From an uncultured Candidatus Saccharibacteria bacterium (GTDB lineage: Bacteria; Patescibacteriota; Minisyncoccia; Phycocordibacterales; Zambryskibacteraceae): a stretch of DNA of 64,000 nucleotides. Location of the stretch: assembly GCA_964355645.1 (NCBI GenBank), contig CAYHDI010000001.1, forward strand, positions 92,897 through 156,896, written 5' to 3'. Under the pieces are notes generated by a model. That model did not search any database. It worked only from the letters and a program-made list of their open reading frames with translations, and was not told where the DNA came from. The position numbers and the translations under genes were made by a program. Shown here in pieces: positions 1,214 to 45,756 of this stretch. Positions within the stretch are counted from its first letter, which is position 1. Each line of letters opens with the position of its first letter.

Positions 1214-2563
1214 TTACACAATTAAAAGATTTCTAATTTGAGCAATCTCTTGAGAAAGAGCCACGTCTTCCTTAAGGTCGTTCTTCATTTTTTCACACGA
1301 ATGGATGACTGTCGTGTGATCTCTCCCCCCCAGTTTTTGACCAATCGACGGATAAGAGATATTAAAATCCTCCCTTAAGAGATACATAATAATTTGTCTC
1401 GGTCGGATAACCTCCTTTCTTCTTGTTTTCTCATAAATACTTTCTTCTTCTATAGAATAAAAATCGGAAACAATCTTCACAATATCCTTTACGGAAACAT
1501 TTCTTTTTGGCTTGGTGCTTGTTTTCACAAAATTTCTTACTTCGTTCATGGTTATTTCCTTCCCCTTGAGTTCGGCGTGGCAAATTAGAGTATTAAGAAT
1601 CCCTTCAAGATCTCTGATGTTCCCGTTCACTGTGTGGGCCAGATAATCAATAATTTCTTGGGAAAGAGCGAGCCCCTGCCCGGAAGCCTTTTTAGTGATA
1701 ATAGCGATTCTAGACTCTTCATCAGGAGGCGGAATGTCTATAACCATTCCGGCTGAAAAGCGAGATTTAAGGCGCTCCTCAAGGCCAGAGATGAAATGAG
1801 GGTTCTTGTCGGACGAGAGAATAATTTGTTTGTTGTTGTCGTAGAGGCTATTAAAAAGATGGAAAAGCTCCTCCTGGAATTTTTGTTTGTCAGTGAAGAA
1901 TTGAACATCGTCCATAATGATGACGTCGTATTTTCGGTATTTCTCCTTGAAAGAAGCCATTTTTTGGTACTGCAAGGCGTTCATACAATCCTGGCAGAAC
2001 CTTTCAGAGGTCATGTAGTAAACTTTCTTGTTTGGATTGGTTTTTTTAATATGGTTACCGATGGCCTGAACCAAATGGGTTTTCCCGTGTCCAGTAGAAC
2101 CGTAGATAAACAAAGGGTTGTATAGCACCCCGGGGTTTTTAATCACAGCCTGGGCGGCCGCATGAGCCAGCTCATTAAAAGGTCCAACAACAAAAGTTTC
2201 AAAGGTATAGCGGGGGTTGAGGTTGTCCTCCTTGTTCACGGTTATTTCAGGAATTGGCAGTTCATTCATTCCTAAATACCCAGAAATGGCTCGGTCTTCT
2301 CTCCTACGAGATTCTTCCTTGTTTATCACATATTCCACGCTATGCACCGAGCTTTCGAGAGAACGAAGAGTTTTAAGAATAGTGTTGTGATATCTCTCAA
2401 GAAGCCACTCCTTCACAAATGCGTTGGGGACAGAAAGAACTATTACCCCACCCTCTTCTTTCACAATACGGGTATCTTTAAACCAAGTAGTGAAATTTGC
2501 TTTTGAAACACCAAGTTCTATTTCGACTAGAACGCTCTGCCAAAGTTGTTTCGGATCAATCAT
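1214..2563 (-). CDS. dnaA: chromosomal replication initiator DnaA
   Basis: Walker A GSTGHGKTHL, the IIMDDVQF box, and the C-terminal DNA-binding domain (GGRDHTTVIHSCEKM) over a 449-aa product. Confidence 0.95.
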   Translation of the reverse strand: MIDPKQLWQSVLVEIELGVSKANFTTWFKDTRIVKEEGGVIVLSVPNAFVKEWLLERYHNTILKTLRSLESSVHSVEYVINKEESRRREDRAISGYLGMNELPIPEITVNKEDNLNPRYTFETFVVGPFNELAHAAAQAVIKNPGVLYNPLFIYGSTGHGKTHLVQAIGNHIKKTNPNKKVYYMTSERFCQDCMNALQYQKMASFKEKYRKYDVIIMDDVQFFTDKQKFQEELFHLFNSLYDNNKQIILSSDKNPHFISGLEERLKSRFSAGMVIDIPPPDEESRIAIITKKASGQGLALSQEIIDYLAHTVNGNIRDLEGILNTLICHAELKGKEITMNEVRNFVKTSTKPKRNVSVKDIVKIVSDFYSIEEESIYEKTRRKEVIRPRQIIMYLLREDFNISYPSIGQKLGGRDHTTVIHSCEKMKNDLKEDVALSQEIAQIRNLLIV

Positions 2564-2670
2564 GGTTTTTGTATCAAAGTTCTAGTAGTATATCCTCCGA
2601 GCCAGAGACACAAAACTTGTAAAAGAGCATAAACATGTTTATAATGTGTTTATAACTTACTTCGAAATTC

Positions 2671-2805
2671 ATGTCTATAACATACCAACCAAAGAAAAGA
2701 AAGAGGGCCAGAGCCCATGGATTCAGAAAACGAGCCAAAACCACCGGAGGTCAAAGAGTAGTTAGGGCCCGCCGCAGAAAAGGTCGAACAAAGCTCGCGG
2801 CTTAA
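2671..2805 (+). CDS. rpmH: 50S ribosomal protein L34
   Basis: A 44-aa ORF below the ORF-track cutoff: [44 protein letters not shown]. It has the canonical L34 sequence and the canonical position upstream of rnpA. Confidence 0.85.
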
Positions 2806-2808
2806 TCC

Positions 2809-3162
2809 ATGCTTCCCAAAAAATTACGAATTCCACGTAAACTTTTTTCAGAGCTTCTTCTTAATTCAAGATATACCAATTCCCCCATTTTCTCGTTGCG
2901 CTTTGTTGTTGATTCTTCAATAAAAGAAACAAGAGTTGGTGTTTCTGTTTCCAAAAAGATTTCCAAAAGCGCGGTGGTTAGAAATAAAGTTCGTCGTCGG
3001 ATTTATGATGCGCTTAAACCAATCATTTCTAATTTTCCGAACGGTCTTTTTCTTTTTATTACCAAACCAGGCATAGAAAAATTCAAAAAAGAAAAATTAG
3101 CCGATGAATTAAAAGGACTTCTAGAAAAAGGGCCGTTTGTTCTGGGAGATAAAAAAAGTTAA
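2809..3162 (+). CDS. rnpA: RNase P protein component
   Basis: 117-aa basic protein (VGVSVSKKISKSAVVRNKVRRRI) in the rpmH-rnpA-yidC synteny. Confidence 0.85.
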   Translation: MLPKKLRIPRKLFSELLLNSRYTNSPIFSLRFVVDSSIKETRVGVSVSKKISKSAVVRNKVRRRIYDALKPIISNFPNGLFLFITKPGIEKFKKEKLADELKGLLEKGPFVLGDKKS

Positions 3163-3176
3163 ACTAATACGACCGA

Positions 3177-3914
3177 ATGACCGCCTTCTATCACATTTTT
3201 ATTCACGATCCCTTGTACAACGGTTTAATTGGTATCTTCACCTTGTTGCCGTGGGCGGACGCTGGTGTGGCCATCATTATTCTCACTTGTGTGGTTCGTC
3301 TTATTCTCTTCCCTCTTTCAAGGAAGGCGGTGCACACTCAAGTGAAGATGCAGGAAATCAATCCGGCTCTGGCTCTAATAAAAGAAAAATACAAAGACAA
3401 TTCTCAAGAACAGGCCAAGAAGACTTTGGAGCTTTATAAAGAAAAAGGGGTTAATCCATTCTCCGGAGTTTTGGTTCTTTTAATCCAACTTCCAATCATT
3501 CTTGCTCTTTATAGAATTTTCTTATATTCAGGATTGCCAGCTGTAAATAGTTCGATCTTGTATTCTTTTATTCATGCTCCCACTCAAATCAATACAGTTT
3601 TCCTTGGGTTAATAAATCTCACTGAAAAAAGTGTGGTCCTCGCTGTTCTTGCCGCCGTCACCACCTTTTTCCAATTAAAATTAGCGGCTCCTATCCCTAC
3701 TAATAAATCAAAAGATGGCTCGAAATCTTTCGGAGACAACCTGGCTCAAAGTATGCAAACCCAAATGAAATATTTTTTCCCAGTCCTCGTGTTTTTTATT
3801 TCATATAAAATCTCCGGAGTGATTGCTCTTTATTGGTTGGTGTCAAACCTCTTCACTATTGGACAGGAAATCGTGGTTAGAAGAAAACTGAAAGCAAAGA
3901 TTAGTTTAGTTTAA
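3177..3914 (+). CDS. yidC: membrane protein insertase YidC/Oxa1 (short form)
   Basis: Multi-TM protein with the conserved YidC core (RLILFPLSRKAVHTQVKMQEINPALALIKEKYKD..., NPFSG). Lies downstream of rnpA. Confidence 0.9.
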   Translation: MTAFYHIFIHDPLYNGLIGIFTLLPWADAGVAIIILTCVVRLILFPLSRKAVHTQVKMQEINPALALIKEKYKDNSQEQAKKTLELYKEKGVNPFSGVLVLLIQLPIILALYRIFLYSGLPAVNSSILYSFIHAPTQINTVFLGLINLTEKSVVLAVLAAVTTFFQLKLAAPIPTNKSKDGSKSFGDNLAQSMQTQMKYFFPVLVFFISYKISGVIALYWLVSNLFTIGQEIVVRRKLKAKISLV

Positions 3915-5130: not shown

Positions 5131-6105
5131 TTAGTAGCTTATATGGAAACTAGGAGCAGTATTATATTTATAGTCCGATGATTTTGAAACGTCCCTCAGA
5201 ATAGCTGGATCTACTCCAGCTGCTGACAAATCATTGTAATTAGCAGTATTGACTTCAAAAATAACCCCAAGATCATTTGTTCTTATAACTTTAGCAAAGG
5301 CATTGATTTCATCTGTCTGCGCTCTAGTTGGTTTCCCCGAAACATACTTATTTGTAGTAAGGTTGGTGTCTATACAACTCCCAATACTATGACAGTTAGC
5401 AGAATGTGGGCTTGTAGTTGGCCACGCTTCCGTGACTTGCCATCCAAATACTATTAGAGAAGCTGCCACTTTTAATTTTTGAAGTAGACCAGCGTTCATT
5501 GATGAATTATTTTTGAAAGACAATCCCTGAATTCCCAAACCGCTTGTGCAATTTATACAAGTACACGGTGCCTTGGTACCGTTTTTGTCTACTACACAAC
5601 TTGAGGTCGCGTTAATTCCCAATGTTTCGGGAGTAGTTGATCCAAGATCTGTACTTATCGGCGCTCCGACTCTTAACCCAGCAATATCAAATTTAAAGGT
5701 AACTAAGTTTGGATTGAGAGTATACAAAATGATGTAAGCACTTATGGCGAGTAGAAGCCCAATGAGAGCATTGTTGATAGTTTCCTTCGCATCACTTTTC
5801 TTTTCGAAAGCATCAGAAGTCATATATTGAATACCGCCCATCATGATTCGAAGAACCGCCAGGGCTCCAGCAATGCCTATGATTAGTTTGATTACCGCGG
5901 GGATGTAAGTGTTTATGTTTACCGGAGTCTTCGCGTTTTCAGAAATTCCAGGAAGTGCAGTCAACGGGCAATAGCCGTCTGGTCCAGGAACACAGGTGGT
6001 TTGTGCATAAATCGGCGCAACGTTCACTAAAAACATAAGAGTGATGAAAGTGAATGCGAAGAATTTAAAAAAAGATTTCATATTATAAATTATTTTGAAC
6101 ACCAA
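5131..6105 (-). CDS. VirB2/TrbC-like T4SS pilin with ~170-aa Cys-rich C-terminal extension
   Basis: Signal peptide, then two hydrophobic helices separated by a short charged loop (IPAVIKLIIGIAGALAVLRIMMGGIQYMTSDAFEKKSDAKETINNALIGLLLAISAYIILY), the hallmark of TrbC/VirB2 pilins. There is no type IV prepilin G|F motif. The Cys-rich tail is unusual. Confidence 0.5.
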   Translation of the reverse strand: MVFKIIYNMKSFFKFFAFTFITLMFLVNVAPIYAQTTCVPGPDGYCPLTALPGISENAKTPVNINTYIPAVIKLIIGIAGALAVLRIMMGGIQYMTSDAFEKKSDAKETINNALIGLLLAISAYIILYTLNPNLVTFKFDIAGLRVGAPISTDLGSTTPETLGINATSSCVVDKNGTKAPCTCINCTSGLGIQGLSFKNNSSMNAGLLQKLKVAASLIVFGWQVTEAWPTTSPHSANCHSIGSCIDTNLTTNKYVSGKPTRAQTDEINAFAKVIRTNDLGVIFEVNTANYNDLSAAGVDPAILRDVSKSSDYKYNTAPSFHISY

Positions 6106-7102
6106 ATTCTATACTCATTGATTTCTCTATGGTTTGAAGAATATTGTTTGAATTTTCTATTTTTAAACCAAGAGTTGAGTTCCCTGCCACCCCTTGTTGG
6201 CCCCGGAGAGTAATAGAGTTTTGGTTTGGGGAGCTAATGTTCGAACCGTTCAGGGTCCAAGTATATTTTAGGGCGCCAGCCTGCAAATCCTTGTTTGAGA
6301 AAAAGTATGGGACCCCGATTACATTTACTTCGGAGGCAGAAAGTTTGAAACCGTTTCCAAGTTCTTGGTTATAAAGAATGCCGAGAAGAGGATTATTCTC
6401 ATAAAAAAGAATTATTGGAAAATCAGGTCGCATGGAGATTGAACTTTTTGTCACAATACTTTTATCAAGGGTAGAGGCCACCACTGAAACATTCATGGGT
6501 AATCCAAGGATAGAATCCACGAGAGTAAGGGAATTTTTCCCCGTACCAGAGAGACTCCCGAGAACGCTCCCATCTTTCGACCAAGTATAAATAACATTTT
6601 TAGGACTCACGACATTTCCATTTTGGTCGATGATGTTTGGTATGGCCACGAAAGTGATACTTCCCTGATTAGTAAACATAGCTCTACCTTTATAAAATGG
6701 TGGTACATATGAATCTCCTTGCCAGAGGAGGTCGACGCTTGCTGGAGTAAGGGTGATGGTTTTTTGAAATGAGTCTCCGTTTGAGGGTTGAATCGAGAGA
6801 TCAACCGAGGTGACAGTGCCTATATTTCCAGTTTTTAATTTCAAAACTTTTTGTCCCATTCCATCCTGAACCGTTTTTCCATTTACAGCCCAAGTGATTT
6901 GAGCACTGTTTAAATCAGTCGAATAGCTTTCAATTCTTATAATCACATCAGTATTTGGCCCAGGGTTCTCCGGGTTTATGCTGACATCAATATTTTCAGA
7001 CAATTGCTGTAAGGCTGCTTCAGGAGAAAGTTGGGCGTGAGTAAAAGCTGGAAGTAGGGAGAAAGAAGAAAGGAGGAGAATAAGTAATATTCTGGATTTC
7101 AT
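6083..7102 (-). CDS. secreted hypothetical protein (T4SS-like cluster)
   Basis: Signal peptide MKSRILLILLLSSFSLLPAFTHA, then a beta-rich mature domain with no motif. Confidence 0.5.
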   Translation of the reverse strand: MKSRILLILLLSSFSLLPAFTHAQLSPEAALQQLSENIDVSINPENPGPNTDVIIRIESYSTDLNSAQITWAVNGKTVQDGMGQKVLKLKTGNIGTVTSVDLSIQPSNGDSFQKTITLTPASVDLLWQGDSYVPPFYKGRAMFTNQGSITFVAIPNIIDQNGNVVSPKNVIYTWSKDGSVLGSLSGTGKNSLTLVDSILGLPMNVSVVASTLDKSIVTKSSISMRPDFPIILFYENNPLLGILYNQELGNGFKLSASEVNVIGVPYFFSNKDLQAGALKYTWTLNGSNISSPNQNSITLRGQQGVAGNSTLGLKIENSNNILQTIEKSMSIEFGVQNNL

Positions 7103-7120
7103 ACTTCTATTATATACGTT

Positions 7121-7546
7121 CTATAGCGGTTTGTTTAACCTTTTCCCCACGTCCTCTATTTTGTTGGTAATTTTCCCCGCTCTTTCTAAAGATTTATCCA
7201 AAATTGGTAAGGCTTTCTCAATCTTACCCTCAGCTTTGTCCCAAGCCATGATTAGAATTACGTCCAATGTCCAAAGAGGCAGTGCGTCTATAATCGGGAG
7301 CTCTTCTCCAACGAAAGAGGCTATCAGTGAAAGTATTTTCTTGGCATTCAATTTCACTCCCCTCAACCAGAAATAGGCGGGTAATACCATTCCCACTACG
7401 ATATCTATAAATCTGTTAGCAATAACTCCTATAGCAAACATGTCCAAAACAATTTGAACCACATCTACTGTGGCCACAGCCCCAATGACCAATCCCCATT
7501 CGAAGTTTGGTATTTTACTGCCCTGTTGTGGTTGTTGCTCCGGCAT
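7121..7546 (-). CDS. small two-TM membrane protein (possible VirB3-like accessory)
   Basis: 141 aa with two hydrophobic helices and a charged C-tail. Its start overlaps the end of the VirB4 ATPase gene. Confidence 0.4.
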   Translation of the reverse strand: MPEQQPQQGSKIPNFEWGLVIGAVATVDVVQIVLDMFAIGVIANRFIDIVVGMVLPAYFWLRGVKLNAKKILSLIASFVGEELPIIDALPLWTLDVILIMAWDKAEGKIEKALPILDKSLERAGKITNKIEDVGKRLNKPL

Positions 7547-9395
7547 TATTTATAGGATTAGGTGACACAATAGGAACTTCCTTTTCTGTTTCAAGTTCCT
7601 GGCGCGCTTTTTTCATGGCAAGGACTTGTGAAGGGTCTGAAGTAATGATTTGGTCCTCGGTGTATGAAGCGATAGCTTTGATGGCCACATGCTTAAGCCC
7701 AGCGAAGAAGATTCCTTCCCCCACATCAGATTCTAGAAGAAGATATTTCTCTTCATCGGTCAGATTAAATGTTTTCTGTAGGTCATCAATAATAGTTGGA
7801 GATTGTTTGAGGAGAATTTGAATCGAAGAGTTTGTGATGATAGGCAAACCGTATGGAGATTTGAGGAAGTCGCCAACGTCTTGAGTGATGGTGGCTATCC
7901 CAAGATAATATTTGCGTCCACGCTTGGCTAGGCCCATGAGGAATGAAGCCGTGTCTTCGGATTTCATCATCCACCACGCTTCGTCTATCACGAGGAGCCT
8001 CTTCTTGAGCTCTTTGCGGATAGCATTCCAGATGAAGTGCATAACGATATACATGGCGATAGGTTTGAGCTCGTCTTCCATGTCTCGCAGAGAGAAGACC
8101 ACGAACTTTTTGTTTATGTCTACATTTGTGGGTCGATTAATGAAGCCGGACCATGTACCTTTCGTGTATTTGGTCAAACGTTGAGCCAGCGATTCTCCTC
8201 CCTCGAGACCGGAGAGAACAAGTTCGAAGTCGGACATGAGAGGAGGCTCAACGGTTCTGAAATCTGATTCAGCGGTGATGTCTTTGAGCGCATAAGTTTC
8301 GGTGATGGCTCGGTCAATAATCGCATCCTCTTCGGCCGTCAGTCCGCCCATCATCAATCTGAACAATCCGACGAGATTAATAATATTTGAACGCAAGACA
8401 TTCGCGCTTGATTCATCCGGACCGGGTACAGGGAGGTCGAACGGATTAATGTGGTGTTCAGAATTAAGAGAGATTTTGAAATATCTTCCACCGGTGGCCT
8501 CGGCCATGTATTCGTATTCATTTTCTGGATCGAGACACAAAACTTCGGTGTCAAACATCAAAGTTCGAAGAATTTCTAGTTTGGTGGCATAAGATTTTCC
8601 TGCCCCAGCCTTCGCGAACATGATTGAGTTGTAGTTTTCGAGGGAGAATCGATCGAAGAGAACGAGAGATGAATTGTGTCTGTTTATCCCGTACAAAATT
8701 CCTTTGTCTGAAGTGAGGTCGAATGAGGTGAATGGGAAGAGTGATGAAAGCGGAGAAGAATTCAATTTAGAATGCACGGCGAGAAGGTCGTTCCCGAGAG
8801 GAAGAGTGCTTTGGTATCCTTGTTCTTGTTGAAAGAGGGCCGGTTTGATATATACAAGCTTCGCATCAAGAATAGATTTGATTTCCGTTTCTACTTTGTC
8901 GAGTTCTGCTTCGTTGTCTGCATAAATAGTGATGTACAAACCAACATCAAAAAGTTTTTCTTGAGCTTGTTGAAGTTGGTCGCGCAAATTCTCGAGGTCT
9001 TGATAAGCCACATCAAGCATTGGGTCACGCACGAGACCTTTGTCTTCTCTCGTATGAATCTGGCTCTGAACCTCGGCTACTTTCTTTTGAAATTGTCTGA
9101 GCACTTTTGAAGTTTCGACCGGGTGAACAAAGATAGAAACGTCGAAAACTTTATCCATGTTGATAATCGGGGCGAACCAACTTTCAGAAAGGAATCTAGG
9201 ATAAGAGATGACGAAGAAACTACGAAGAATCTTTTCTCCAAGGTTTATTTCTTTCGGGGTGACGGAGAGAGCCGAAGGGGCGATGATGTCTTTCAATTCA
9301 AGCACCCCGGCTTGAAATATTTCTTGAGGCAGGATAGAAGCGATGTCCGGCTTCGCGTTTTCTTTCCCTCCAAATAAGTTTGAAAAAAAACTCAT
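7515..9395 (-). CDS. VirB4/TrbE/PrgJ-family T4SS ATPase, C-terminal (ATPase) portion
   Basis: Walker A FAKAGAGKSYAT and Walker B LLVIDEAWWMM with the surrounding conserved VirB4 architecture. The VirB4 N-terminal domain is absent from this ORF. Confidence 0.85.
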   Translation of the reverse strand: MSFFSNLFGGKENAKPDIASILPQEIFQAGVLELKDIIAPSALSVTPKEINLGEKILRSFFVISYPRFLSESWFAPIINMDKVFDVSIFVHPVETSKVLRQFQKKVAEVQSQIHTREDKGLVRDPMLDVAYQDLENLRDQLQQAQEKLFDVGLYITIYADNEAELDKVETEIKSILDAKLVYIKPALFQQEQGYQSTLPLGNDLLAVHSKLNSSPLSSLFPFTSFDLTSDKGILYGINRHNSSLVLFDRFSLENYNSIMFAKAGAGKSYATKLEILRTLMFDTEVLCLDPENEYEYMAEATGGRYFKISLNSEHHINPFDLPVPGPDESSANVLRSNIINLVGLFRLMMGGLTAEEDAIIDRAITETYALKDITAESDFRTVEPPLMSDFELVLSGLEGGESLAQRLTKYTKGTWSGFINRPTNVDINKKFVVFSLRDMEDELKPIAMYIVMHFIWNAIRKELKKRLLVIDEAWWMMKSEDTASFLMGLAKRGRKYYLGIATITQDVGDFLKSPYGLPIITNSSIQILLKQSPTIIDDLQKTFNLTDEEKYLLLESDVGEGIFFAGLKHVAIKAIASYTEDQIITSDPSQVLAMKKARQELETEKEVPIVSPNPINNAGATTTTGQ

Positions 9396-10574: not shown

Positions 10575-11033
10575 TTATTGTCTATTGTCTATAGTAACTT
10601 GTTTATTATCCTGTGTAACAGGATTGTTATTATCTCGAATATCTAAACTCCAAGACAAATCTTTGAGCTTGGATTCTGAAAGTTTAGGCACATAAATTTG
10701 TGGGGCTGGCTTATTGTTCATCGCATTTTGTTCATTGTTTATCATTGGCTTCTTTTCCTCTTTCTTCCAAACATAAAGCTTCGAAGAGGTGGAGTAGTGC
10801 AGAAAATCTTCAACCACTTGAATAAACGGACGTTCGTTCACTTTATAAAACGCGAGAGCTGCCCCGAAGACTGCGACAGGTATAGAAAGGATAATGGCCA
10901 CGAACATCGGCAATAGACTGAAGAAGATGACGCACAACCCCACTGCCCCGGCGATATAGATGAATTGTTTGAAGGTCAAAGGCCCGAACAGTTTGTCTTC
11001 AATCTCAATGAATTGAGGTACTTGGAATCGCAT
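10575..11033 (-). CDS. PrgI/VirB3-like T4SS membrane protein
   Basis: MRFQVPQFIEIEDKLFGPLTFKQFIYI, two TM helices, and ...FIQVVEDFLHYSTSSKLYVW match the PrgI family (pCF10 PrgI VRVPKEIREYKEKIIFGLNLRQFICL...YIQSIYRYQTSPKKRYY). Directly upstream of virB4, as in Gram-positive T4SSs. Confidence 0.6.
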   Translation of the reverse strand: MRFQVPQFIEIEDKLFGPLTFKQFIYIAGAVGLCVIFFSLLPMFVAIILSIPVAVFGAALAFYKVNERPFIQVVEDFLHYSTSSKLYVWKKEEKKPMINNEQNAMNNKPAPQIYVPKLSESKLKDLSWSLDIRDNNNPVTQDNKQVTIDNRQ

Positions 11034-11119
11034 GCATTAATGATAACAAAAAAACCGACCAAAATCTGGTCGGCTCCAACGTATAGAATGAAGAAAGTTT
11101 AATAAAGACCAGTCGCAAC

Positions 11120-11644
11120 CTAATGTACGAACAGAAGATAACCAACCACCACAATTATTGCCACGGCTAGTATTTCCAGTGGTGTAGTGGGTATTTCCAC
11201 ATTTGGATAACAGACTGAATGCCACGAATAACCATTCTTGAGAGTAGTTACCTCTTGGTAATCAGGAAATATCGGTAATGAGCATGTCGGGCAATTGTTT
11301 CTTGAAACTCTCAGTGGCCCATTTGAACCACATCCGTGGCACACTGATTCCACTTTTAGAACTCCTTGAGAAGACAGAGCTTTACCACACTCGCAACATC
11401 TTAGAGTTTTTGTAGTGACATTTACTGTACGAATTCTTTCATCCAAACAGCTTGCATGAATGTAGTGGCTCGACCAACCCAAAGGTTCACTTGTACGAAC
11501 CATTTGGTCTAGACGACCCATTTTTTGGCACAACCTACACTTAACATAATCAAAACGTTTTTCTCCACACCTCGGACACTTTTCAGCTGATTGGCTTATA
11601 GAATGTCCACATTTCACACACGGAACGAGTTTTATCGAAGACAT
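11120..11644 (-). CDS. multi zinc-ribbon protein with C-terminal TM anchor
   Basis: Repeated CxxC pairs (CVKCGH...CPRCG, CRLCQ, CCECG, CHGCG, CPTCS) and a C-terminal hydrophobic helix (LAVAIIVVVGYLLFV). A rho-independent terminator follows (GGAGCCGACCAGATTTTGGTCGGTTTTTTT on the minus strand, about 11046-11075). Confidence 0.5.
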   Translation of the reverse strand: MSSIKLVPCVKCGHSISQSAEKCPRCGEKRFDYVKCRLCQKMGRLDQMVRTSEPLGWSSHYIHASCLDERIRTVNVTTKTLRCCECGKALSSQGVLKVESVCHGCGSNGPLRVSRNNCPTCSLPIFPDYQEVTTLKNGYSWHSVCYPNVEIPTTPLEILAVAIIVVVGYLLFVH

Positions 11645-11721
11645 GGGACGCTCCTGGGGTCGAAGAACGTGATTTTCCTATTGACACTTATATCATTTTA
11701 GCGTAAAAAGCACAACACATT

Positions 11722-12342
11722 TTATTCTAGTGGTTCTCTATATGGGTCTTTTCCTCCCGGGTATCCTGCTTGTGGTGTCGGAGGAGTATATGGCTCGGGT
11801 TGTTGTTTTTGAGCTGGGGTTTGAATGGGAGCTTGAACCGGAGGTGTTTGAGTTGGTTTTTGTTGAATAGGAGGAACAAACGGTTTCGTATCGTGTACTG
11901 TTTCGCTCGCTTCAATCATTGGAAGATTTGCTGGTGGAACTTCAAGTTCGGTAGTTTTGGTTGGGGGGAGGCTTTCTAAATCAGGCTTCTCAATGACCGG
12001 TTGTATTTTTTCTTGCTCCACTGAAGATACATCAATTTCTGTTGGAAGAAACGCCATCATTTCTTTGAAAATTCGTTCATTTAATTCCATTGTCACGGCT
12101 TTCGCAAGGACTGGGTCAATTCCTAAACTTGTAGATAAGTTTTTTTCTAAATTACTTAGTAAATCTAAACCAATCAATGCAAACAAAACTTCATTTTCTA
12201 AAGATGTTTTTTGATCTAGTGACAATCCATCTTTTTTTGCTATATCTTCTACTACGGAAACCCATTTTTCTTCAGCAATAAATTTTCTAATTTCTTCAGG
12301 AGCGCTCGTTATTTGCTGTTCTAGTATTTTTGAATCTTCCAT
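11722..12342 (-). CDS. hypothetical protein with Pro/Gln-rich C-terminus
   Basis: 206-aa ORF in the cluster with no motif. Confidence 0.4.
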   Translation of the reverse strand: MEDSKILEQQITSAPEEIRKFIAEEKWVSVVEDIAKKDGLSLDQKTSLENEVLFALIGLDLLSNLEKNLSTSLGIDPVLAKAVTMELNERIFKEMMAFLPTEIDVSSVEQEKIQPVIEKPDLESLPPTKTTELEVPPANLPMIEASETVHDTKPFVPPIQQKPTQTPPVQAPIQTPAQKQQPEPYTPPTPQAGYPGGKDPYREPLE

Positions 12343-12345
12343 AAA

Positions 12346-14685
12346 TTATTCTTTTGGTTTTTCCTCACCACTTTCGGTTGTTTTTTCTTTGGCACCCCCC
12401 TCATCCTTCTTTTCATCTTTGATATCACCCGCTTCTTTAAGTATAGCCTCTAGCTGTTCTTTAACAGGCTTTTTACCCTTTCTCAAATTTGCAGCAGCTT
12501 GAAGTGAAGATTGTTTTACAGCTCCAACAAGAAACACCCTGTCTAGACTCACCAGACCAGGATTTGAGATATTAAGAGCTCGAGATTGCGTTCTAAGTTC
12601 TCCAATCCCTTTAGTTTCCTTTATCGCCTCTCTTCTAGTTTTGTATTCCTCTGAAATGGCCTTTTGAGAAAGAACACTTTGTTTCTTAGCGATTTCAAAT
12701 TCTTGGTTCTTGATTATAAGTTCTTTGTTTAGAGCTTCTTTTTGGGCATCGCTAGCTTTATTAATTTGATTAACGAGATTTTTTACTTGTTCGTCAAGAT
12801 CTTTTTCCTTTTTAAGGTTAGGATCTTTTCCTAGAGCAGTTTTCTCTTCTTCGTTTAAAGCCTTCTGTCTATTATCAAATTCTTTTTTATCAACACCTGT
12901 TAGCTTATCTACCTTTTCTTGAGTACTACGCACTTTCTCTTCAACTCCAGAGCTTGAAACCAATTGTTCAATCCCCCTCTGTCGGCGGGCCTCGTGTGCT
13001 TCTTGTATTGGCTTTGCTTGTTCCTCAAGTTCGGCCATTCGTTTTAATGCTCCAGCACGTGAGTCAACAGAAAGGCTTGGATTTTCAGACAGTTTCTTTG
13101 CTGTTTGTATATCATTTTCTAATTTGACCAAAACTTCTGGTTTTTTTAGAGTCGAGTCAACCGTTGTCGTTGCTGTTGCTCTGACTTTCTTTTCTTTTTC
13201 TTTTGCCTCATCTCGATCTTGTTTTGCTCGATCAATTACAGTATCTGCAGGAGCAAGAGATTTGGCGAATTCCTCTTTTTTCTTTGCTTCGTCTTTTATC
13301 ATTTGTTCACGCCCGCCCTTTCCACCAGCTTTTCCTGCCCCAAGAGAATCGTTTAATCCTGTTCCGCGCAAATCAAAACTTCCCTTCGCAGCCTTACTAG
13401 CAGCCGCAAGTTGTAATCTAGCTCGAATGCTTCCCTCGGCAGCTCTTTTCTTAAGATCTTCATTATTTAAATCAGCAACAGCTTTCGCACCAATAGTCCT
13501 TCGACCGGCGTACCCAACCAACCCAAGCGTGGCCCCTCCTGCAAATCCCATAGCCGCGCCCGTCATTTTACTTACCATTCCCCCCGCTTTATTCGCCATA
13601 TTCTTTGAAAGGATAAGAGTAGCGATGAGGAAAACAATTACCACAACAAAGTTAAACAACAGTGATGCGGAATCCGGGTTTATCACATCTTGTCCGTTAA
13701 CAGTTTTCATTGATCCCGTGAGAGCGTCTGCCAAGGTTCCCGTTCCCTTCGGCATGTGTTGAAAAATATTGATAGTAATCCAAGTTAGCAACATATATAA
13801 AGGAGCGAAGAAAGCTTGATTAAGAAGAGCATCTTTCCACTTTCCCCATACACCCTCAATACCCGGGATGACCCATGAAACAAACGCAATAGGAGAAAGA
13901 ATTAAAACGAAAATAAGAACCACATATCGAATCACAAACATCATGGCAATCGCGAAGAACACGAAAGCAGCAATCAAGGAAACAATTGAGCCCATCACAC
14001 CAATAGTGGCAAGGTTAGAAGGGTCGAGACCGCCAGCCATACTCCAAATTGACTGCAGACTAAGAGGCTCCATCAGAGCATTTGAAAGTCCAGTATTTAA
14101 AATTTGATCTGGTGTGCCGGCTGTGCCGCCTGGTACCATTGCATTATAAAAAGTAACAGCGAGAAGGTTCGAAGCATCTATCACTACCTTGGTAAAGAAC
14201 AAACTAAAGTTAATCAGGATGGCGGCGATGACAATATTTACAATTAGTTTCCTCGTATCTTTCCCCACACCCAAAATCATTTGAATCGAAGCATAGAGTA
14301 ATACAAAGATAAAACCCATGTTGGCTATGTCGCGCAAAGTGCCCCATGCAGTGTCTATGGCTGAAATCTTTCCGTAATTTTCTGCCACATTAACGACAGT
14401 GTAATTAACTACATAATTTAGAATAATTCCCGACAATCCGGTAATGAGAGAGACTATTTTAAGGACAAGAATCGCTATTGGAGTGACAACTGAGCCGATG
14501 ACGTCTGCTCCAGCTTGTTTCCAACCAGAAGGAGTAAGAGGACCACAAGCGGGGTTCAGGTAAGCTAAAGGATTTGATGCTGAACAGTCGTCGGCGTGTG
14601 CAACGTTTGGCCAAACACTTCCCCCTACTCCAAACATAACAATGAAGAGTAAACCAAATGTGATGATATGAGAATATTTTTTCAT
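12346..14685 (-). CDS. VirB6/TrbL/PrgH-like polytopic membrane protein with long charged coiled-coil tail
   Basis: Signal/TM N-terminus, at least 6 predicted TM helices in the first ~400 aa, then a ~350-aa Lys/Glu-rich tail. Architecture and position upstream of prgI-virB4 match VirB6-like proteins. Confidence 0.55.
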   Translation of the reverse strand: MKKYSHIITFGLLFIVMFGVGGSVWPNVAHADDCSASNPLAYLNPACGPLTPSGWKQAGADVIGSVVTPIAILVLKIVSLITGLSGIILNYVVNYTVVNVAENYGKISAIDTAWGTLRDIANMGFIFVLLYASIQMILGVGKDTRKLIVNIVIAAILINFSLFFTKVVIDASNLLAVTFYNAMVPGGTAGTPDQILNTGLSNALMEPLSLQSIWSMAGGLDPSNLATIGVMGSIVSLIAAFVFFAIAMMFVIRYVVLIFVLILSPIAFVSWVIPGIEGVWGKWKDALLNQAFFAPLYMLLTWITINIFQHMPKGTGTLADALTGSMKTVNGQDVINPDSASLLFNFVVVIVFLIATLILSKNMANKAGGMVSKMTGAAMGFAGGATLGLVGYAGRRTIGAKAVADLNNEDLKKRAAEGSIRARLQLAAASKAAKGSFDLRGTGLNDSLGAGKAGGKGGREQMIKDEAKKKEEFAKSLAPADTVIDRAKQDRDEAKEKEKKVRATATTTVDSTLKKPEVLVKLENDIQTAKKLSENPSLSVDSRAGALKRMAELEEQAKPIQEAHEARRQRGIEQLVSSSGVEEKVRSTQEKVDKLTGVDKKEFDNRQKALNEEEKTALGKDPNLKKEKDLDEQVKNLVNQINKASDAQKEALNKELIIKNQEFEIAKKQSVLSQKAISEEYKTRREAIKETKGIGELRTQSRALNISNPGLVSLDRVFLVGAVKQSSLQAAANLRKGKKPVKEQLEAILKEAGDIKDEKKDEGGAKEKTTESGEEKPKE

Positions 14686-23002: not shown

Positions 23003-23060
23003 TCTCACATCAAATTTTTTGGGGCGAGATTCAACGGCTTCGAGAGCGTGAATATGGTTT
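23003..23060 (-). pseudogene. degenerate duplicate of the comM 3' end
   Basis: Minus-strand reading gives NHIHALEAVESRPKKFDV, against DHILEAVEYRPKKFDV* at the true comM end (23623-23670). Nucleotide identity is about 38/50. Confidence 0.4.
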
Positions 23061-23233
23061 GACAATCTAGCGTCAAGCCGTATACTTAATGTATTAGGTC
23101 CCTTCGGGGGACTCCGAGAAACCCGCCCTTCGGCGGGTTTTGATTTTGGCTACTTGCTTTATTTTAGGAGTTGACTATAATAATCATATTATGGCTTCGG
23201 CCTCCGAGGACCTCCGCAAGGGGGTCCGATTTG

Positions 23234-23617
23234 TTATAGTGATTCTAGCCAAGCGTTCTTAAGTTCGTTGAAGATTTTTTCATCAAGTACATCCACCTTG
23301 CGTAATAATCGTTTGTTGCTGATCACTCGCATTTGGCTAAGCTTTGCCCATATAACTCTTTCTTCCGTTTGAACTTTGTAATGGAATCTATCAGTTTTTT
23401 CTTTAGTAGTTAAAGGTAAGATTACAGCTGTTTCTTTGTTGTAAACTTTCATAATAATAACTGGGCGTTCGAAATTTTCATTCTTTCCGTCTATTTCCGC
23501 GCCAACATTAAGACCTAACGAACACCACCATATCTCTCTTGGGTGTACATATTTGGTAATAGGAGCTTTTTCAAGTTCCTTTTTATTTTTATTCCATGTG
23601 TCAAAATCTTTTTGCAT
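23234..23617 (-). CDS. PemK/MazF-family endoribonuclease toxin-like protein (no adjacent protein antitoxin)
   Basis: REIWWCSLGLNVGAEIDGKNENFERPVIIMKVYNKETAVILPLTTKEK aligns with B. subtilis EndoA/MazF ([28 protein letters not shown]...AIVAAITAQ). Confidence 0.55.
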   Translation of the reverse strand: MQKDFDTWNKNKKELEKAPITKYVHPREIWWCSLGLNVGAEIDGKNENFERPVIIMKVYNKETAVILPLTTKEKTDRFHYKVQTEERVIWAKLSQMRVISNKRLLRKVDVLDEKIFNELKNAWLESL

Positions 23618-40138: not shown

Positions 40139-40474
40139 TTGGTGATGAAGGCTTTTCACTATCATATTCTCAACAATCTCATCATAGATGAATATAGAAA
40201 GCACAAGACGATGTCTCTCGATGTGCTCATCGAAAAAGGATTTGAACCAAAGGACAATGAAGCCGAACGCCCGTTTGACATGTTGGCTGGCAAGACGGCT
40301 CTCCTTCTTATCCAACAACTTCCGTTAAATTATCAAAAAGTGATGCGTATGAAGTTTGTCCAAGATCTCTCGCTCGAGGAGATGTCTCTTATCACTGGTC
40401 AAACAAAGAACACTATCGCAGTGCAAATACACCGAGGCCTTGCTAAACTCAGATTATTATATAACCCAGTTTAA
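40139..40474 (+). pseudogene. 5'-truncated ECF-type sigma-70 factor (regions 2.4-4 only, TTG start)
   Basis: HYHILNNLIIDEYRK resembles region 2.4 and LPLNYQKVMRMKFVQDLSLEEMSLITGQTKNTIAVQIHRGLAKLR is the region-4 HTH. Regions 2.1-2.3 are absent and the truncation point abuts tRNA-Arg. Confidence 0.5.
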
Positions 40475-40479
40475 CGGCC

Positions 40480-40923
40480 CTAAATAATGATGTTTTCTAA
40501 CATCTCAACTCTCGCCTTTCGGTTTGTCTGATCAATTTTGACCGTGATTATGTCTAATTGCCAATCCATATTGTCCAAACGCTTTTCAAGAATGTAAGTC
40601 TGAATCGCACGAGCCAAACGTTTTAGTTTTTGTGGGTGAACGTTCTCCTCTGGCCTATAACCAGCTTCATGAATAACATTAGCAGGCAATGTTACACAAG
40701 AAACACTCTTTACCTCTACAAAACGGATAATCCCCTTCCTTTTAGCAATAATATCAAGCTCGCCCCATTTGCGTAGGTAATTCCTATCAAGAATCTCAAA
40801 CCCGTGCCTTTTTAAGTAATCACAAGCGATATTTTCGCCGATATCGCCTAATTTTCTCTTTTCAGTCCGATTATCGGGTTTCGGGCTTGCCCTGAGCTTG
40901 TCGAAGGGTTTCATGAATAACAT
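40480..40923 (-). CDS. YraN/UPF0102 family endonuclease
   Basis: LGDIGENIACDYLKRHGFEILDRNYLRKWGELDIIAKRKGIIRFVEVKS matches the family. Confidence 0.7.
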   Translation of the reverse strand: MLFMKPFDKLRASPKPDNRTEKRKLGDIGENIACDYLKRHGFEILDRNYLRKWGELDIIAKRKGIIRFVEVKSVSCVTLPANVIHEAGYRPEENVHPQKLKRLARAIQTYILEKRLDNMDWQLDIITVKIDQTNRKARVEMLENIII

Positions 40924-41119
40924 AAAGTTAAATGTTTCACGTGAAGACGCTTTATGTATATATGGCCAAGATTAAGGATGAAAAGGGCAATAATTGTTAT
41001 GGACATGTCTTTAATACACAGTTTCCCCACACTTATCCACAGTTATAAAGTTTTGTGTTCTAGTAATCCCTAAAATTAAGGATTTTTTGGCACTTTTTGA
41101 TTTTAGCATGAAAATTTAA

Positions 41120-41450
41120 AGGACAAACAAAAACCGCCGGCGGGGCGATCCGCGGCGGGTGTCCACGACCGCTTTGCGGTCGGGAAGAAAGATAAGCCCC
41201 AGAACGAACTAGTGAGGCGAAGGATAAACTCAATCGCATAATTAAAGGTGAGGATTGGTGTCCTCCACCATACATAGTTCAAACCAGGCACTCCTTTCGG
41301 GGGAGTCGTACGACTCCCAATATATATTCGTCGACGTTTGTGCGATGCACCCGCCAGATCTTGTCGCTCAAGAGGAGAAACTTTCACCAGAGGAAGCGTC
41401 TGTACATAGTATACATCTTTAAAGGACAAATAATTAAAACAAAACTGTGG
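41120..41450. ncRNA. GC-rich structured element of unknown class in a 560-bp ORF-free spacer
   Basis: About 60% GC within a ~33% GC context. Contains GC hairpins (CCGCCGGCGG..., GGGGGAGTCGTACGACTCCC) and a ...CCTCCACCA stretch at 41262-41270. On the minus strand it ends in a GC hairpin followed by TTTTTGTTTG. No class could be assigned by eye. Confidence 0.2.
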
Positions 41451-41485
41451 ATAACGAAATTATTTTGTCTCTTAAATATATGGCT

Positions 41486-42265
41486 CTATTTAAGGGTTAA
41501 TTTGATAGGACAGTGATCTGAACCGAGAATGTTGTCAAGGATTTCCATGGATTCAATATTTTTCATCATTTCAAGTGAGGCAAAAAAGTAATCAATTCTC
41601 CAACCGACATTTCTTTCTCGAGCGAAAGTTTTCATATCCCAATATGTATAAGCCTCAGTTTTCTTCGGATTAAAATGTCTGAAAACATCTGTCCATCCAT
41701 GTGAGATTAACTTATCCATCCAAGCCCGTTCGATAGGGAGGAAGCCGACATGTGTTTCATTTTCTTTTGGTCTCGCAAGGTCTATGGCTGTATGGGCCAC
41801 ATTCACATCTCCACAAAAGATGATATTCGGCTGTTTCTTGTGTAACTCATCTATGAATTTTAGAAAATGGTCATAAAAATCAAGTTTATAGTGCAATCTT
41901 TCTGAAGCACCGCCTCCGTTGGGAAAATAACAGTTTATAAGTGAAAAATCCTTATAATGAGCCACAATTAAACGTCCTTCTTGGTCCATTTCCTTTATTC
42001 CAAGGTCGTTGGCTACCCCAATCGGCTCTTCTCTTGAATATATAGCTACTCCGCTGTAGCCTTTCTTGAGAGTAGGGAAGTGAAAGTAGGAATAGAAACC
42101 TTTCGGCGAACGAGCTTCGTCCGGAAGTTGTTCAGGCAAAGTTTTCGTTTCTTGAATACACAAGATATCAGGATTTTCCTCGAGGATTCGGTCAAAGGCC
42201 CCTTTCTTGTGCACTGCTCGCAGACCGTTCACGTTCCAAGAGATGATAGATAGATTTTTCTTCAT
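41486..42265 (-). CDS. xth: exodeoxyribonuclease III
   Basis: IISWNVNGLRAVHKK...ILCIQETK with the EEP-fold motifs through to the C-terminal SDHCPI. Confidence 0.9.
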   Translation of the reverse strand: MKKNLSIISWNVNGLRAVHKKGAFDRILEENPDILCIQETKTLPEQLPDEARSPKGFYSYFHFPTLKKGYSGVAIYSREEPIGVANDLGIKEMDQEGRLIVAHYKDFSLINCYFPNGGGASERLHYKLDFYDHFLKFIDELHKKQPNIIFCGDVNVAHTAIDLARPKENETHVGFLPIERAWMDKLISHGWTDVFRHFNPKKTEAYTYWDMKTFARERNVGWRIDYFFASLEMMKNIESMEILDNILGSDHCPIKLTLK

Positions 42266-43099: not shown

Positions 43100-44300
43100 C
43101 CTGTGCACAGGAAAGATTGAATTAAGCAACATCATATCAGACACTCTTTAATCTTTTCCTTAGGTGTTAAGCCGTTAATTCCCAAATGTTCACGTTCATT
43201 GTTATACCAATCAATATAGACTTGTCTCTTTAAATCAAGATCCTCAAGGGTTTTGAATGATACTTGATTCCAGAATTCTTCTCTATCTGTCCGGTGGCTT
43301 CTTTCCACCTTGCCATTCTGAGATGGTTTGCCCGGTTGAATCAGATAATGAATGATTTTGTTTTTAAGACAAGTTTGATCAAACAAATGTTTCTTTCTTG
43401 CACCCAGGCTCTTGTATGCTCCAACATATCTATTAGTGAAGATGGAACCGTTATCTGTCTTAACCCCCAGGACTTTGAATGGGGCGTGTTTAATCACTTC
43501 ATCCAGAAATCTCGAAGCATTTAATGAATGTTGTTCCGAATAAAACTTCAAGAATCTCCATCTGGTGCAGCAATCTATAGCCGTGAACTGAAAGATCCAT
43601 TTATCTTTATATCTCTTCATTAAAGCCACATCTATCTCTATAAGTTCTCCAGGAACCAAACTCTTCGGTTTCCAGATATCAGTTCTAGGTATTCGTCTCT
43701 TGGTTCGTACTAACTTCTCACGTTTCAAGACTTTATGTATTCCTCTGGCACTCATCACAGTTCCTTCTTTCAAGAGTCTGAATCTAATTTTTTGAGCACA
43801 GAAATTGTGTTCACTTCTAATTTCTCGTATTCTTTGAACTATATGTATTGGAGTGGTATGAGGATGAGAGTGATGAGCTCTGGATTTCTCCTTGAGACCA
43901 GTTAATCCATTCTTGAGATAACTCCTCTTCCATCTATGCAAAGTATCTCGGCAGAACCCAGAACGTTGGCTTAACTCTGTGATTGATAAATTTCCTTCAA
44001 AATGAAGCTTGAGCCAACGTTCCCGTTCGCTGGCAATCAATATATCTGTTTTTCTTATCATCTTAACCATAGTTTTACACTGTCTGAGATGATGGTACAC
44101 AATACCATTTACACTTGCTTTATTTTCAATTAGTGGTAGTTTAACAATCAGAGCGGTTCCCTTATTCAGGAGTTCAGATGACCAAATCTCAAGAGAATTG
44201 TCATGATGAAGATATTGGCAAACTTGGTCAGAATCCATTTGCTGTAGCAGATGATCCGCCGGATTCTGATCAGATTCTCAAGCAACTCATGGTCGATTAC
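43100..44300. mobile_element. IS481-family insertion sequence (ends not resolved by eye)
   Basis: Single full-length transposase ORF. Terminal inverted repeats could not be defined confidently. Confidence 0.5.
43132..44238 (-). CDS. IS481-family DDE transposase
   Basis: N-terminal HTH (LSITELSQRSGFCRDTLHRWKRSY) and rve integrase core (KTDNGSIF...IQPGKPSQNGKVERSHRT...EREHLGINGLTP). Confidence 0.8.
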   Translation of the reverse strand: MDSDQVCQYLHHDNSLEIWSSELLNKGTALIVKLPLIENKASVNGIVYHHLRQCKTMVKMIRKTDILIASERERWLKLHFEGNLSITELSQRSGFCRDTLHRWKRSYLKNGLTGLKEKSRAHHSHPHTTPIHIVQRIREIRSEHNFCAQKIRFRLLKEGTVMSARGIHKVLKREKLVRTKRRIPRTDIWKPKSLVPGELIEIDVALMKRYKDKWIFQFTAIDCCTRWRFLKFYSEQHSLNASRFLDEVIKHAPFKVLGVKTDNGSIFTNRYVGAYKSLGARKKHLFDQTCLKNKIIHYLIQPGKPSQNGKVERSHRTDREEFWNQVSFKTLEDLDLKRQVYIDWYNNEREHLGINGLTPKEKIKECLI

Positions 44301-45602: not shown

Positions 45603-45654
45603 AACCCCCCAGCTTACGCCAAGGGGTTCGACAATACCGCTGACCGCAGCTACT

Positions 45655-45756
45655 TTACGACGCCGGGGAATCAGCGTCGGAATCCTCGCTGTAGTCATCG
45701 CTGCTGACGTCATCGACGTCCGCATCGTTGGCGCTGTCGCCATCGTCTGCCATCAT
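45655..45756 (-). CDS. 33-aa highly acidic Asp/Ser-rich peptide in a GC-rich segment
   Basis: MMADDGDSANDADVDDVSSDDYSEDSDADSPAS. SD-like GAGGTG 4 nt upstream. Promoter-like TTGACA-N15-TATAAT on the minus strand at about 45845-45875. Not in the ORF track (<60 aa). Confidence 0.35.
   Translation of the reverse strand: MMADDGDSANDADVDDVSSDDYSEDSDADSPAS

Follow-up and report, generated by a model that had tools for sequence, protein, structure and literature searches.

The question raised by this locus is what occupies the longest non-coding stretch in a DNA segment of 64,000 nucleotides (nt) from an uncultured Candidatus Saccharibacteria bacterium (contig CAYHDI010000001.1; the whole segment is called the window below). 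The stretch is a spacer of 562 nt at positions 40924–41485, flanked by yraN/UPF0102 (40480–40923, minus strand) and xthA (41486–42265, minus strand). On a greedy and crude map of the open reading frames (ORFs) of the 64-kb window, the median gap was 54 nt and the next longest gaps measured 385, 300 and 295 nt; the spacer was therefore considered exceptional. The reading favoured here, with a probability of roughly 0.72, is that the minus strand of the spacer holds a structured non-coding RNA (ncRNA) gene, about 274 nt long and transcribed independently, which would belong to a family outside Rfam that was found only in Zambryskibacteria-like Paceibacteria (Candidate Phyla Radiation, CPR). This reading is carried by the gene-like layout of the locus, its conservation in synteny, covariation in a central rod and in a 5′ helix (helix a), the strand that the base pairs specify, and the absence of a match to a known family.

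The initial annotation, made from the letters alone, had described a long ORF-free spacer with a structured core of about 60% G+C, and had taken the G+C-rich island for a structured RNA. Most of this was borne out. The ORFs inside the spacer were short and overlapping, and a Pfam search with them gave no match. The G+C content of the RNA proper (41129–41402) was 53.5%, compared with 28.9% in the spacer flanks and 40.8% in the window; the island is real, but the figure was too high, with 48.9% for 41120–41450. Folding against shuffled sequences gave z = −5.2 for the minus strand and z = −4.7 for the plus strand. The G+C-rich hairpin and T-run that had been noticed on the minus strand form a predicted intrinsic terminator (41129–41151, minus strand), with the hairpin at 41151–41131 followed by TTTTTGTTTG (UUUUU in the RNA), and the proposed gene ends there. 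A hairpin with a T-run was present at the equivalent position in the other members for which downstream sequence was available. The locus has the features of a stand-alone ncRNA gene at the level of sequence, namely a putative promoter, a terminator, a covarying structure and no conserved reading frame.

That the spacer encodes a small protein, for example in the 108-codon minus-strand ORF at 41103–41429, is hardly credible. This ORF is on the strand of its neighbours, and gene callers sometimes place small ORFs here; however, it starts with TTG, has no Pfam match and extends across the terminator. In this spacer, gene callers placed small ORFs inconsistently, or none, on contigs that are near-identical or related, and the ORFs called in relatives differed in position, length and even strand. 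Close relatives differed by 1-nt indels, and the substitutions in helices were compensatory.

Comparison with related contigs showed that the locus is conserved. The xthA protein was identical on Hainich groundwater contigs, and the spacer was identical in all three of those contigs that were aligned. Its relatives bear the names Zambryskibacteria, Minisyncoccia, Parcubacteria or Paceibacteria. In relatives with xthA 74–95% identical, the order xthA, spacer of 534–715 nt and yraN was kept. The RNA was at the same site in every locus with an xthA identity of at least 68% and sequence downstream of xthA, and every copy was on the same strand as xthA, 130–440 nt beyond its stop. In all loci of this kind (type 1) with enough downstream sequence and genes called, the downstream gene was yraN. 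In several of them (the window, L008, L011 and L015), tRNA genes and cca were located downstream of yraN.

Alignment of 11 spacers revealed conserved blocks that follow one another on the minus strand: GTTATCCACAG, TGTCCTTTA, a −10-like hexamer, YAGRCGC, a body and the terminator. The body between YAGRCGC and the terminator was variable yet alignable, with two nearly invariant CUGG. After the terminator came a second GTCCTTTAA (in some spacers only), an A+T-rich stretch and CTGTGGATAA-n-TGTGGAA-n-TGTGTATTAAAGACA, and the final blocks were a third GTCCTTAA, the palindrome TTTCAyrTGAAAC and then the yraN start.

The predicted RNA gene (41129–41402, minus strand) starts at its 5′ end with the conserved CAGACGC and stops where the T-run of the terminator ends. 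Across the family, the RNA measured between about 220 nt and over 350 nt and had a common anatomy: a short 5′ tail YAGRC, a long hairpin that carries a yCUCU loop, the conserved junction GCAUnnGUUC, a small hairpin, the rod, 0–3 variable hairpins and then the terminator in members with downstream sequence. In the window, the 5′ hairpin (hairpin A, 41347–41397) consisted of helix a, an internal loop and helix b, whose pyrimidine loop CUCCUCUU corresponds to yCUCU in relatives. Helix a pairs the GC of the conserved YAGRCGC with the GC of GCAU, and is closed by these conserved GC...GC pairs; compensatory changes were observed in 5 of its 6 pairs among 15 sequences. Helix b was read off the sequences; the count covers helix a. 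The small hairpin (hairpin C, 41301–41318) was GGGAGUCG-UA-CGACUCCC, and relatives had, for example, UGGAA-GGCCA-UUCCA at the same place.

The central rod (41181–41302, 122 nt) was the region covered by the covariance models. It was irregular, about 120 nt long in the family, and contained the helices H1 (GAAAG/CUUUC), H2 (CUGG/CUGG), H3, H4 and H5. Its base was formed by GGAAG/CUUUC and the near-invariant CUGG/CUGG with tandem G.U pairs, and the family consensus could be written as cggAAG-n5-ucUGG ... CUGG-n7-cUU. The two CUGG, at 41284–41287 (5′ strand of H2) and 41199–41202 (3′ strand of H2), form C-G, U.G, G.U and G-C pairs in 21–22 of 22 sequences, with a spacing of 83–88 nt in all nine sequences examined. 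These U.G and G.U wobbles would be A.C mismatches on the other strand; therefore, the minus strand was considered as the transcribed strand. The tip of the rod was the apical loop CUCACCUUUAAUUAUGC (41236–41252), which in the family was U-rich, 16–21 nt long and mostly started with CnCA (CnCAAC-UUUAUUU).

Covariance models of the rod were built stepwise (R1, R2 and R3), starting from three close sequences. R1 found eight further loci. R2, which scored 122.5 bits on the window, brought the total to 22 copies, twelve of them outside its training set (L029, L032, L030, L027, L025, L013, L024, L011, both copies of L018, L042 and L061). Twenty loci had one copy just downstream of xthA, and L018 had two. 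In L018, two diverged and inverted xthA-RNA-yraN cassettes (6001–7754 and 10612–12469) flank a tRNA array on one contig. R3 added one marginal candidate in the more distant Paceibacteria (L053, weak, E = 0.43) and otherwise did not detect an RNA after xthA there.

In the alignment of the 22 sequences, standard pairs filled 81.0% of the cells, compared with 39.5–51.6% when the partners were slid by 1–3 columns. Cells changed on both sides numbered 157 (31–57 in the slid controls), and 33 of 39 pairs had a compensatory change (16–24 in the slid controls). None of 500 shuffles reached any of the observed measures. The initial annotation had named the lack of covariation in relatives, next to the lack of an Rfam match and of a transcript, as what would make the spacer a decayed pseudogene or insertion remnant; the covariation found was strong. 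The same unbranched rod was obtained from each of nine sequences folded singly. MAFFT with RNAalifold on unfitted alignments gave no more than H1, H2 and portions of the inner helices; for the latter, single-sequence folds and model-based realignment were required.

Searches for known families gave no match to the RNA. With Rfam 15 at the gathering score, only tRNAs were found in the window and in 22 related loci; at E ≤ 10, the 801-nt region, the 291-nt RNA alone and a distant relative gave only noise and no family. The scan of the spacer that had been proposed earlier was thus blank, relatives included. ARAGORN predicted tRNAs only and no tmRNA. In the literature, no described CPR ncRNA of this kind was found. 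Of rnpB, ssrA and ffs, which had been named as expected candidates, none fitted. The CCACCA motif that had been pointed out is on the untranscribed strand and was judged meaningless, the RNA strand being UGGUGG, the 5′ strand of H4; the sequence GGTGAGGATTGGTGTCCTCCACCA is located at 41247–41270 on the plus strand. Likewise, GGUCGGGAAGAAAGAUAAGC, which had seemed vaguely like the signal recognition particle (SRP) RNA, is on the untranscribed strand and corresponds in the RNA to the 3′ strands of H1 and H2. Transfer-messenger RNA (tmRNA; RF00023, permuted forms too) was rejected: neither a tRNA-like domain nor a tag frame was matched, and CCACCA abuts a hairpin with a 6-nt loop on the untranscribed strand. 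SRP RNA (RF00169, RF01854) had no match, and the tip of the rod was a U-rich loop, not a GNRA domain IV. 6S RNA (RF00013) had no match either; the ends of the RNA were unpaired and the internal loops of the rod small. Threading by eye onto RNase P RNA, the tRNA-like domain of tmRNA, SRP domain IV and 6S RNA fitted none of them.

The region upstream of the RNA had the features of a control region. A −10-like hexamer TATACT (41408–41413, minus strand), which is TATAAT, TAAACT or TATACT in relatives, marks the putative promoter. The motif TGTCCTTTA, invariant in the 11-spacer alignment, adjoins this element; in the window it has the form TTTGTCCTTTAAA (41418–41430, minus strand), the promoter-proximal first copy of a 13-nt perfect direct repeat. 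Upstream of TGTCCTTTA, at 25–40 nt across the loci, is the extended DnaA box GTTATCCACAG (11-mer, 41445–41455, minus strand; 9-mer TGTGGATAA at 41446–41454), about 45–55 nt upstream of the predicted RNA start. This 11-mer, which is the extended form of the high-affinity boxes R1 and R4 of E. coli oriC, was present upstream of the RNA with at most one mismatch in 19 of 22 type 1 loci and in 12 of 13 loci of a second type (type 2, described below), where 0.026 would be expected per 200 nt; the 13 distant loci are loci that the RNA model did not detect. Farther upstream is a degenerate inverted copy of TGTCCTTTA, TTTAAGAGACAAA (41464–41476, minus strand, TAAAGGACA-like, two mismatches), whose counterpart is AAAAGGACA in L008 and L009 and a clean TAAAGGACA in distant loci. 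In the distant loci, where TGTCCTTTA is duplicated, the layout was TAAAGGACA, n, GTTATCCACAG, nnn, TGTCCTTTA, nnn, TGTCCTTTA and the −10 element, and the layout in the window (41464–41476, 41445–41455 and 41418–41430) was the same in weaker form. The motif TGTCCTTTA was regarded as operator-like because its sets in the distant loci overlap the core promoter and surround the DnaA box.

A consensus box at a conserved position relative to the promoter, as expected of a DnaA-regulated promoter, is thus present at the sequence level, and DnaA binding is predicted. In the window, three perfect DnaA 9-mers were counted where 0.56 are expected, a number reached in 2 of 100 shuffles. Both of the 9-mers that had been reported on either side of the core are real, although the second is at 41446–41454, a shift of 2 nt, and the conservation across the clade gives them more weight than had been thought. 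The other one, TTATCCACA at 41033–41041, belongs to an array of three same-orientation DnaA-box-like 9-mers on the minus strand (41012–41041): a perfect TGTGGATAA at 41033–41041, TGGGGAAAC at 41021–41029, which is TGTGGAAnn in most relatives, and TGTGTATTA at 41012–41020. This array was the most conserved block of the spacer, and an inverted 11-mer downstream was found within one mismatch in 15 of 21 loci.

The motifs also recur between the terminator and yraN. A second copy of TTTGTCCTTTAAA (41115–41127, minus strand) is located just past the terminator and is followed by TGCTAAAAT, with a −10-like TAAAAT at 41100–41105. A third, degenerate copy of GTCCTTAA, CATCCTTAA (40972–40980, minus strand), precedes a CATATAT −10-like element for yraN, and its counterparts in relatives are TGTCCTTAA, TGTCCCTAA and TGTCCATAA. 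Directly upstream of yraN is the conserved palindrome TTTCACGTGAA (40935–40945), which was present as TTTCAyrTGAAAC in all 11 spacers and is possibly a third site of regulation. A palindrome with CACGTG, similar in type to TTTCACGTGAA(A), was seen inside and after type 2 RNAs (L044, about 3432–3443 and 3647–3656).

These repeats could also be read as the scars of a transposable element. The perfect 13-nt direct repeat TTTAAAGGACAAA at 41115 and 41418 brackets the core, and a perfect 12-nt inverted repeat, TTATCCACAGTT / AACTGTGGATAA, has the two DnaA 9-mers as its cores; the spacer would then be the remnant of a miniature inverted-repeat transposable element, with a G+C-rich insert of 290 bp, a 13-bp target duplication and 12-bp terminal inverted repeats. 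The composition of the core, which is unlike that of its flanks, and an IS481-type transposase 1.7 kb away agree with such a remnant. However, the bracketing repeats proved to be conserved motifs, some matching the DnaA-box consensus, and were also found in different numbers and arrangements (with a third copy ahead of yraN and, in distant loci, tandem copies), and this reading was dropped for that reason. In addition, there was one copy in the window; the element was at the same place in species with xthA 60–95% identical and diverged in step with the genome; the compensatory changes indicate selection at the RNA level; and the transposase was absent from the relatives L007–L009. A mobile-element origin is accordingly very improbable, and both repeats, as far as their sequences tell, are regulatory sites and not insertion scars.

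In more distant Paceibacteria, a different-looking RNA of about 200 nt (type 2) was found after xthA, behind the same DnaA-box/TGTCCTTTA promoter (L044, 3270–3560, with equivalents in L045, L047, L050–L053 and L056). Its conserved blocks were CCUGCCnACGC, a hairpin, ACACAAGCC, GUGAAAGCGCCAG, AAACCGCCCUCAUUUCUC and a 3′ GCUCCUUUU, followed by a convergent cca; it had no Rfam match. Features seen in both types were the promoter module, AAGGAC...GUUCUUUC close to the 5′ end, and a hairpin loop with CUCA and U-rich sequence. L039, L043, L048, L057 and L064 had the promoter module in common, and their downstream sequences differed. Type 2 is possibly a related but restructured RNA. Its position after the same promoter in sister lineages would then point to an RNA that evolves fast and a control module that evolves slowly.

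The type 2 loci bear on two further explanations of the spacer. According to the first, it is a DnaA-binding DNA locus, that is, a secondary origin, a titration site like datA or DARS, or the yraN promoter, and the core is incidental or serves only to deliver transcription. The spacer has two perfect and two degenerate boxes in all. Its three-box array within 30 nt (one perfect and two degenerate boxes) is the best-conserved block and adjoins an A+T-rich stretch, in most loci the core has boxes in inverted orientation on its two sides, and the number of boxes at the putative oriC beside dnaA is no higher than in the spacer. However, dnaA, dnaN, rpmH and rnpA with their own boxes are located 40 kb away, at the usual position of oriC; for this reason, the array at 41012–41041 was read as more probably regulatory or DnaA-titrating than oriC. 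No GC-skew turn was seen at 41 kb (skew within the window being uninformative), and genes run one way through the spacer. In the distant loci, the promoter box and the RNA are kept, whereas the downstream array and yraN are absent, and the covariation is inexplicable at the DNA level. A DnaA-binding locus is compatible with the ncRNA gene as far as the flanks are concerned and is no substitute for it in the core; as an explanation of the whole spacer it is improbable.

The putative origin itself is at the start of the window (1–3200), which is probably a canonical origin region. It contains dnaN (2–1048, minus strand), dnaA (1217–2581, minus strand, with a GGRDHTTV motif) and rpmH/rnpA-like ORFs (plus strand, about 2700–3170), with DnaA boxes at 491, 1031 (perfect) and 1098.

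The second explanation is that the RNA acts in cis, as a leader of yraN (riboswitch, attenuator or thermosensor) or as a structured 3′ untranslated region of xthA. It has the same orientation as xthA and yraN, its terminator is ahead of yraN, and its association with xthA is constant. However, yraN is about 205 nt away from the terminator, with further promoter-like elements and the DnaA array in between, and a conserved −10-like element with operator-like sites follows the xthA stop ahead of the RNA. The RNA that comes after the same promoter in distant loci faces a convergent cca and has nothing downstream to regulate, and Rfam gave no match to a riboswitch or leader family. A cis-acting element is improbable, slightly more so than a DnaA-binding locus.

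Several points weigh against an independently transcribed ncRNA gene of a new family. No good −35 hexamer was found 16–18 nt from TATACT, while canonical TTGACA-N17-TATACT promoters are used elsewhere in the genome; TTGTCC-N10-TAWAMT, tried as a general promoter type, showed no enrichment in the window. The 5′ and 3′ ends of the RNA were placed from the promoter-like element and the terminator, and its expression and role are likewise predictions from sequence. All members were retrieved through xthA, so the linkage between RNA and xthA is partly a product of the search. An RNA-first scan of metagenomes with the pattern TTCTGG-N-GACGRAYCC-N-CTGGA gave chance matches among the matches listed; of the 80 listed loci, only one had a marginal match to the model (20.5 bits, E = 0.0096). 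The alignment used for counting pairs was fitted to the model and favours structure; the slid controls and the independent single-sequence folds lessen this bias, without removing it fully, and argue that the signal is real. Finally, an RNase P RNA must exist somewhere in the genome because rnpA is present, and the RNase P RNAs of CPR bacteria are known to go undetected in some cases at default Rfam thresholds (PMC8172020).

This last point raises the possibility that the window RNA is the rnpB of the genome, too diverged or reduced for the Rfam models. The presence of rnpA in the window (RNR motif AVVRNKVRRR) means that the RNase P of this organism depends on an RNA, the locus is near tRNA genes and cca, and H1 with H2 (GGAAG...CUGG / CUGG...CUUUC) is superficially like P4 (AAG-U-CCGGG / CCCGG-CUU). 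Among 35 circular CPR genomes, 10 lacked a default Rfam RNase P match and thresholds were lowered to 5 bits, and some CPR RNase P RNAs are without P12, P15 or the UGG motif (PMC8172020). However, diverged CPR RNase P RNAs still hold many conserved features (PMC8172020), and the RNase P models were silent at E ≤ 10 on the 291-nt and 801-nt sequences, although matches of 11–13 bits were listed; the relatives gave the same result. CR-I GGAAAGUCC and CR-V ACAnAAnnCGGCUUA were absent, the bases after GGAAG varied across the family, and GGCUUAUC was found only in the closest relatives of the window. The sequence GGGGCUUAUC had resembled CR-V and was dropped, being conserved only in the closest relatives and unfit in topology. 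H1 and H2 enclose one unbranched hairpin of 85 nt, with no P1, no P2 crossing P4 and no S-domain. The 5′ end of the RNA pairs locally in helix a, and L018a and L013 have nothing between H1 and the terminator. The rod was unrecognisable in sister lineages at about 60% xthA identity, unlike a catalytic core. An identity with rnpB is therefore as improbable as the transposable-element origin.

For the ncRNA gene, a mechanism can be proposed. Transcription would start about 7 nt past TATACT. DnaA bound to GTTATCCACAG near −50, together with a second factor at the TGTCCTTTA / TAAAGGACA repeats, which overlap the core promoter, would control it, and the level of the RNA would then follow the status of the replication initiator. 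That DnaA and a TGTCCTTTA-binding factor set the transcription of the RNA is somewhat favoured by the sequence of the control region. In trans, the RNA might act as a protein-binding scaffold, a proposal put forward at a little under even odds and suggested by the conservation of CUGG/CUGG and GGAAG/CUUUC beyond the needs of pairing; the recognition sites would be the sequence-invariant CUGG/CUGG helix and the conserved loops. A less favoured alternative is that the pyrimidine-rich loops pair with purine-rich RNA targets.

The neighbours of the RNA allow one further, more speculative step. The gene xthA (exodeoxyribonuclease III, a repair nuclease; Pfam Exo_endo_phos, E = 1.5e-30) adjoins the RNA upstream in every locus found. 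The yraN product (Pfam UPF0102, E = 9e-20) belongs to the YraN proteins, and YraN is reported to be the single-stranded DNA endonuclease that acts with ComM to resolve the D-loop of natural transformation (bioRxiv 10.1101/2024.02.06.579203). The RNA might represent a new DnaA-gated class that works with xthA (always) and with yraN (in one lineage), although this is unlikely as it stands. Such an RNA could bind protein as a cofactor or decoy and thereby link the replication status of ultra-small CPR bacteria to the repair of DNA or to its uptake and recombination.

Other features were observed around the locus and elsewhere in the window. An IS481-type (rve) transposase gene is located at 43132–44238 (minus strand), 0.9 kb beyond xthA. 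It was present on the near-identical contigs too and was not seen in the gene tables of L007–L009, so it is probably a recent insertion. On the other side of the spacer, a 111-codon ORF (40139–40474, plus strand) has sigma-70 region 4 (Sigma70_r4_2) only and is possibly truncated; near yraN, L009 and L010 have a complete sigma gene of the extracytoplasmic function type, with regions 2 and 4. In L008, genes for RNase H, a reverse transcriptase (RVT_1) and bAvd (1471–3312) are located about 7 kb upstream of xthA; this set looks like a diversity-generating retroelement unrelated to the RNA. At 23040–23240 (plus strand), a perfect TTGACA-N17-TATACT promoter is followed by a predicted transcript of about 55 nt with a hairpin and terminator (GGUCCCUUCGGGGGACUCCGAGAAACCCGCCCUUCGGCGGGUUUU), and a second unit nearby has CUCCGAG in common with it; neither unit had an Rfam match, and they may be two small RNAs. 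The G+C-rich gap of 125 nt at 45603–45727 was also considered and rejected, since it looks like the end of an acidic minus-strand protein gene and not like an RNA.

CPR bacteria (Patescibacteria) make up a large share of bacterial diversity, and their ncRNAs beyond rRNA, tRNA and diverged RNase P RNA are barely known. The family described here is well delimited and backed by covariation, with 22 members, a control region that is conserved and a consensus that has been defined, and it is absent from Rfam 15. The DnaA box of its putative promoter is among the clearest conserved ones outside an origin, and offers a testable link from replication-initiator status to an RNA effector in organisms with minimal regulatory repertoires. 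A covariance model would improve the annotation of Paceibacteria and prevent spurious small-ORF calls in this spacer.

Comparison with known systems placed the window RNA near several of them without an identity to any. Small RNAs of the RsaE/RoxS type in Gram-positive bacteria pair with Shine-Dalgarno regions through C-rich loops. The window RNA resembles them in its two conserved pyrimidine-rich loops (yCUCU and CnCAAC-U-rich), its own promoter-like element, its apparent control by transcription factors and its terminator; however, it is 3–4 times larger, and the sequence of its helices is conserved (CUGG/CUGG), which pairing small RNAs do not need. With RNase P RNA (RF00010; PMC8172020), it shares a size in the range of reduced forms, a genome with rnpA, tRNA genes and cca nearby, and AAG/CUU with a four-pair, G/C-rich long-range helix; it differs in having no CR-I, CR-V, P1/P2/P4 pseudoknot or S-domain, no covariance-model score and no conservation in sister lineages. 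Like 6S RNA and Ms1, the RNA is mostly a double-stranded irregular rod with conserved unpaired bases, has a stand-alone gene with a terminator and plausibly binds protein. Unlike them, its ends are unpaired, it has an apical loop instead of a central bubble and about 100 nt of extra 5′ hairpins, and neither RF00013 nor related models matched it. The large Bacillus-type SRP RNA (RF01854) also has two 5′ hairpins and then one long rod, whereas the window RNA lacks domain IV and the helix 2 that closes the 5′ domain, and gave no covariance-model match.

OLE, raiA, ROOL, GOLLD and HEARO are large or complex bacterial ncRNAs that were found by comparative genomics and whose function is unknown. The window RNA is like them a stand-alone G+C-rich island in A+T-rich intergenic DNA, with covariation in several helices and a restriction to one lineage. 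In contrast to them, it has no match in Rfam 15, is smaller (220–350 nt), forms a chain of hairpins without a multi-stem junction, occurs in the CPR and has a putative promoter with a conserved DnaA box. The window RNA is thus new at the level of the RNA family, and as an orphan structured bacterial ncRNA it belongs to a general kind that is familiar.

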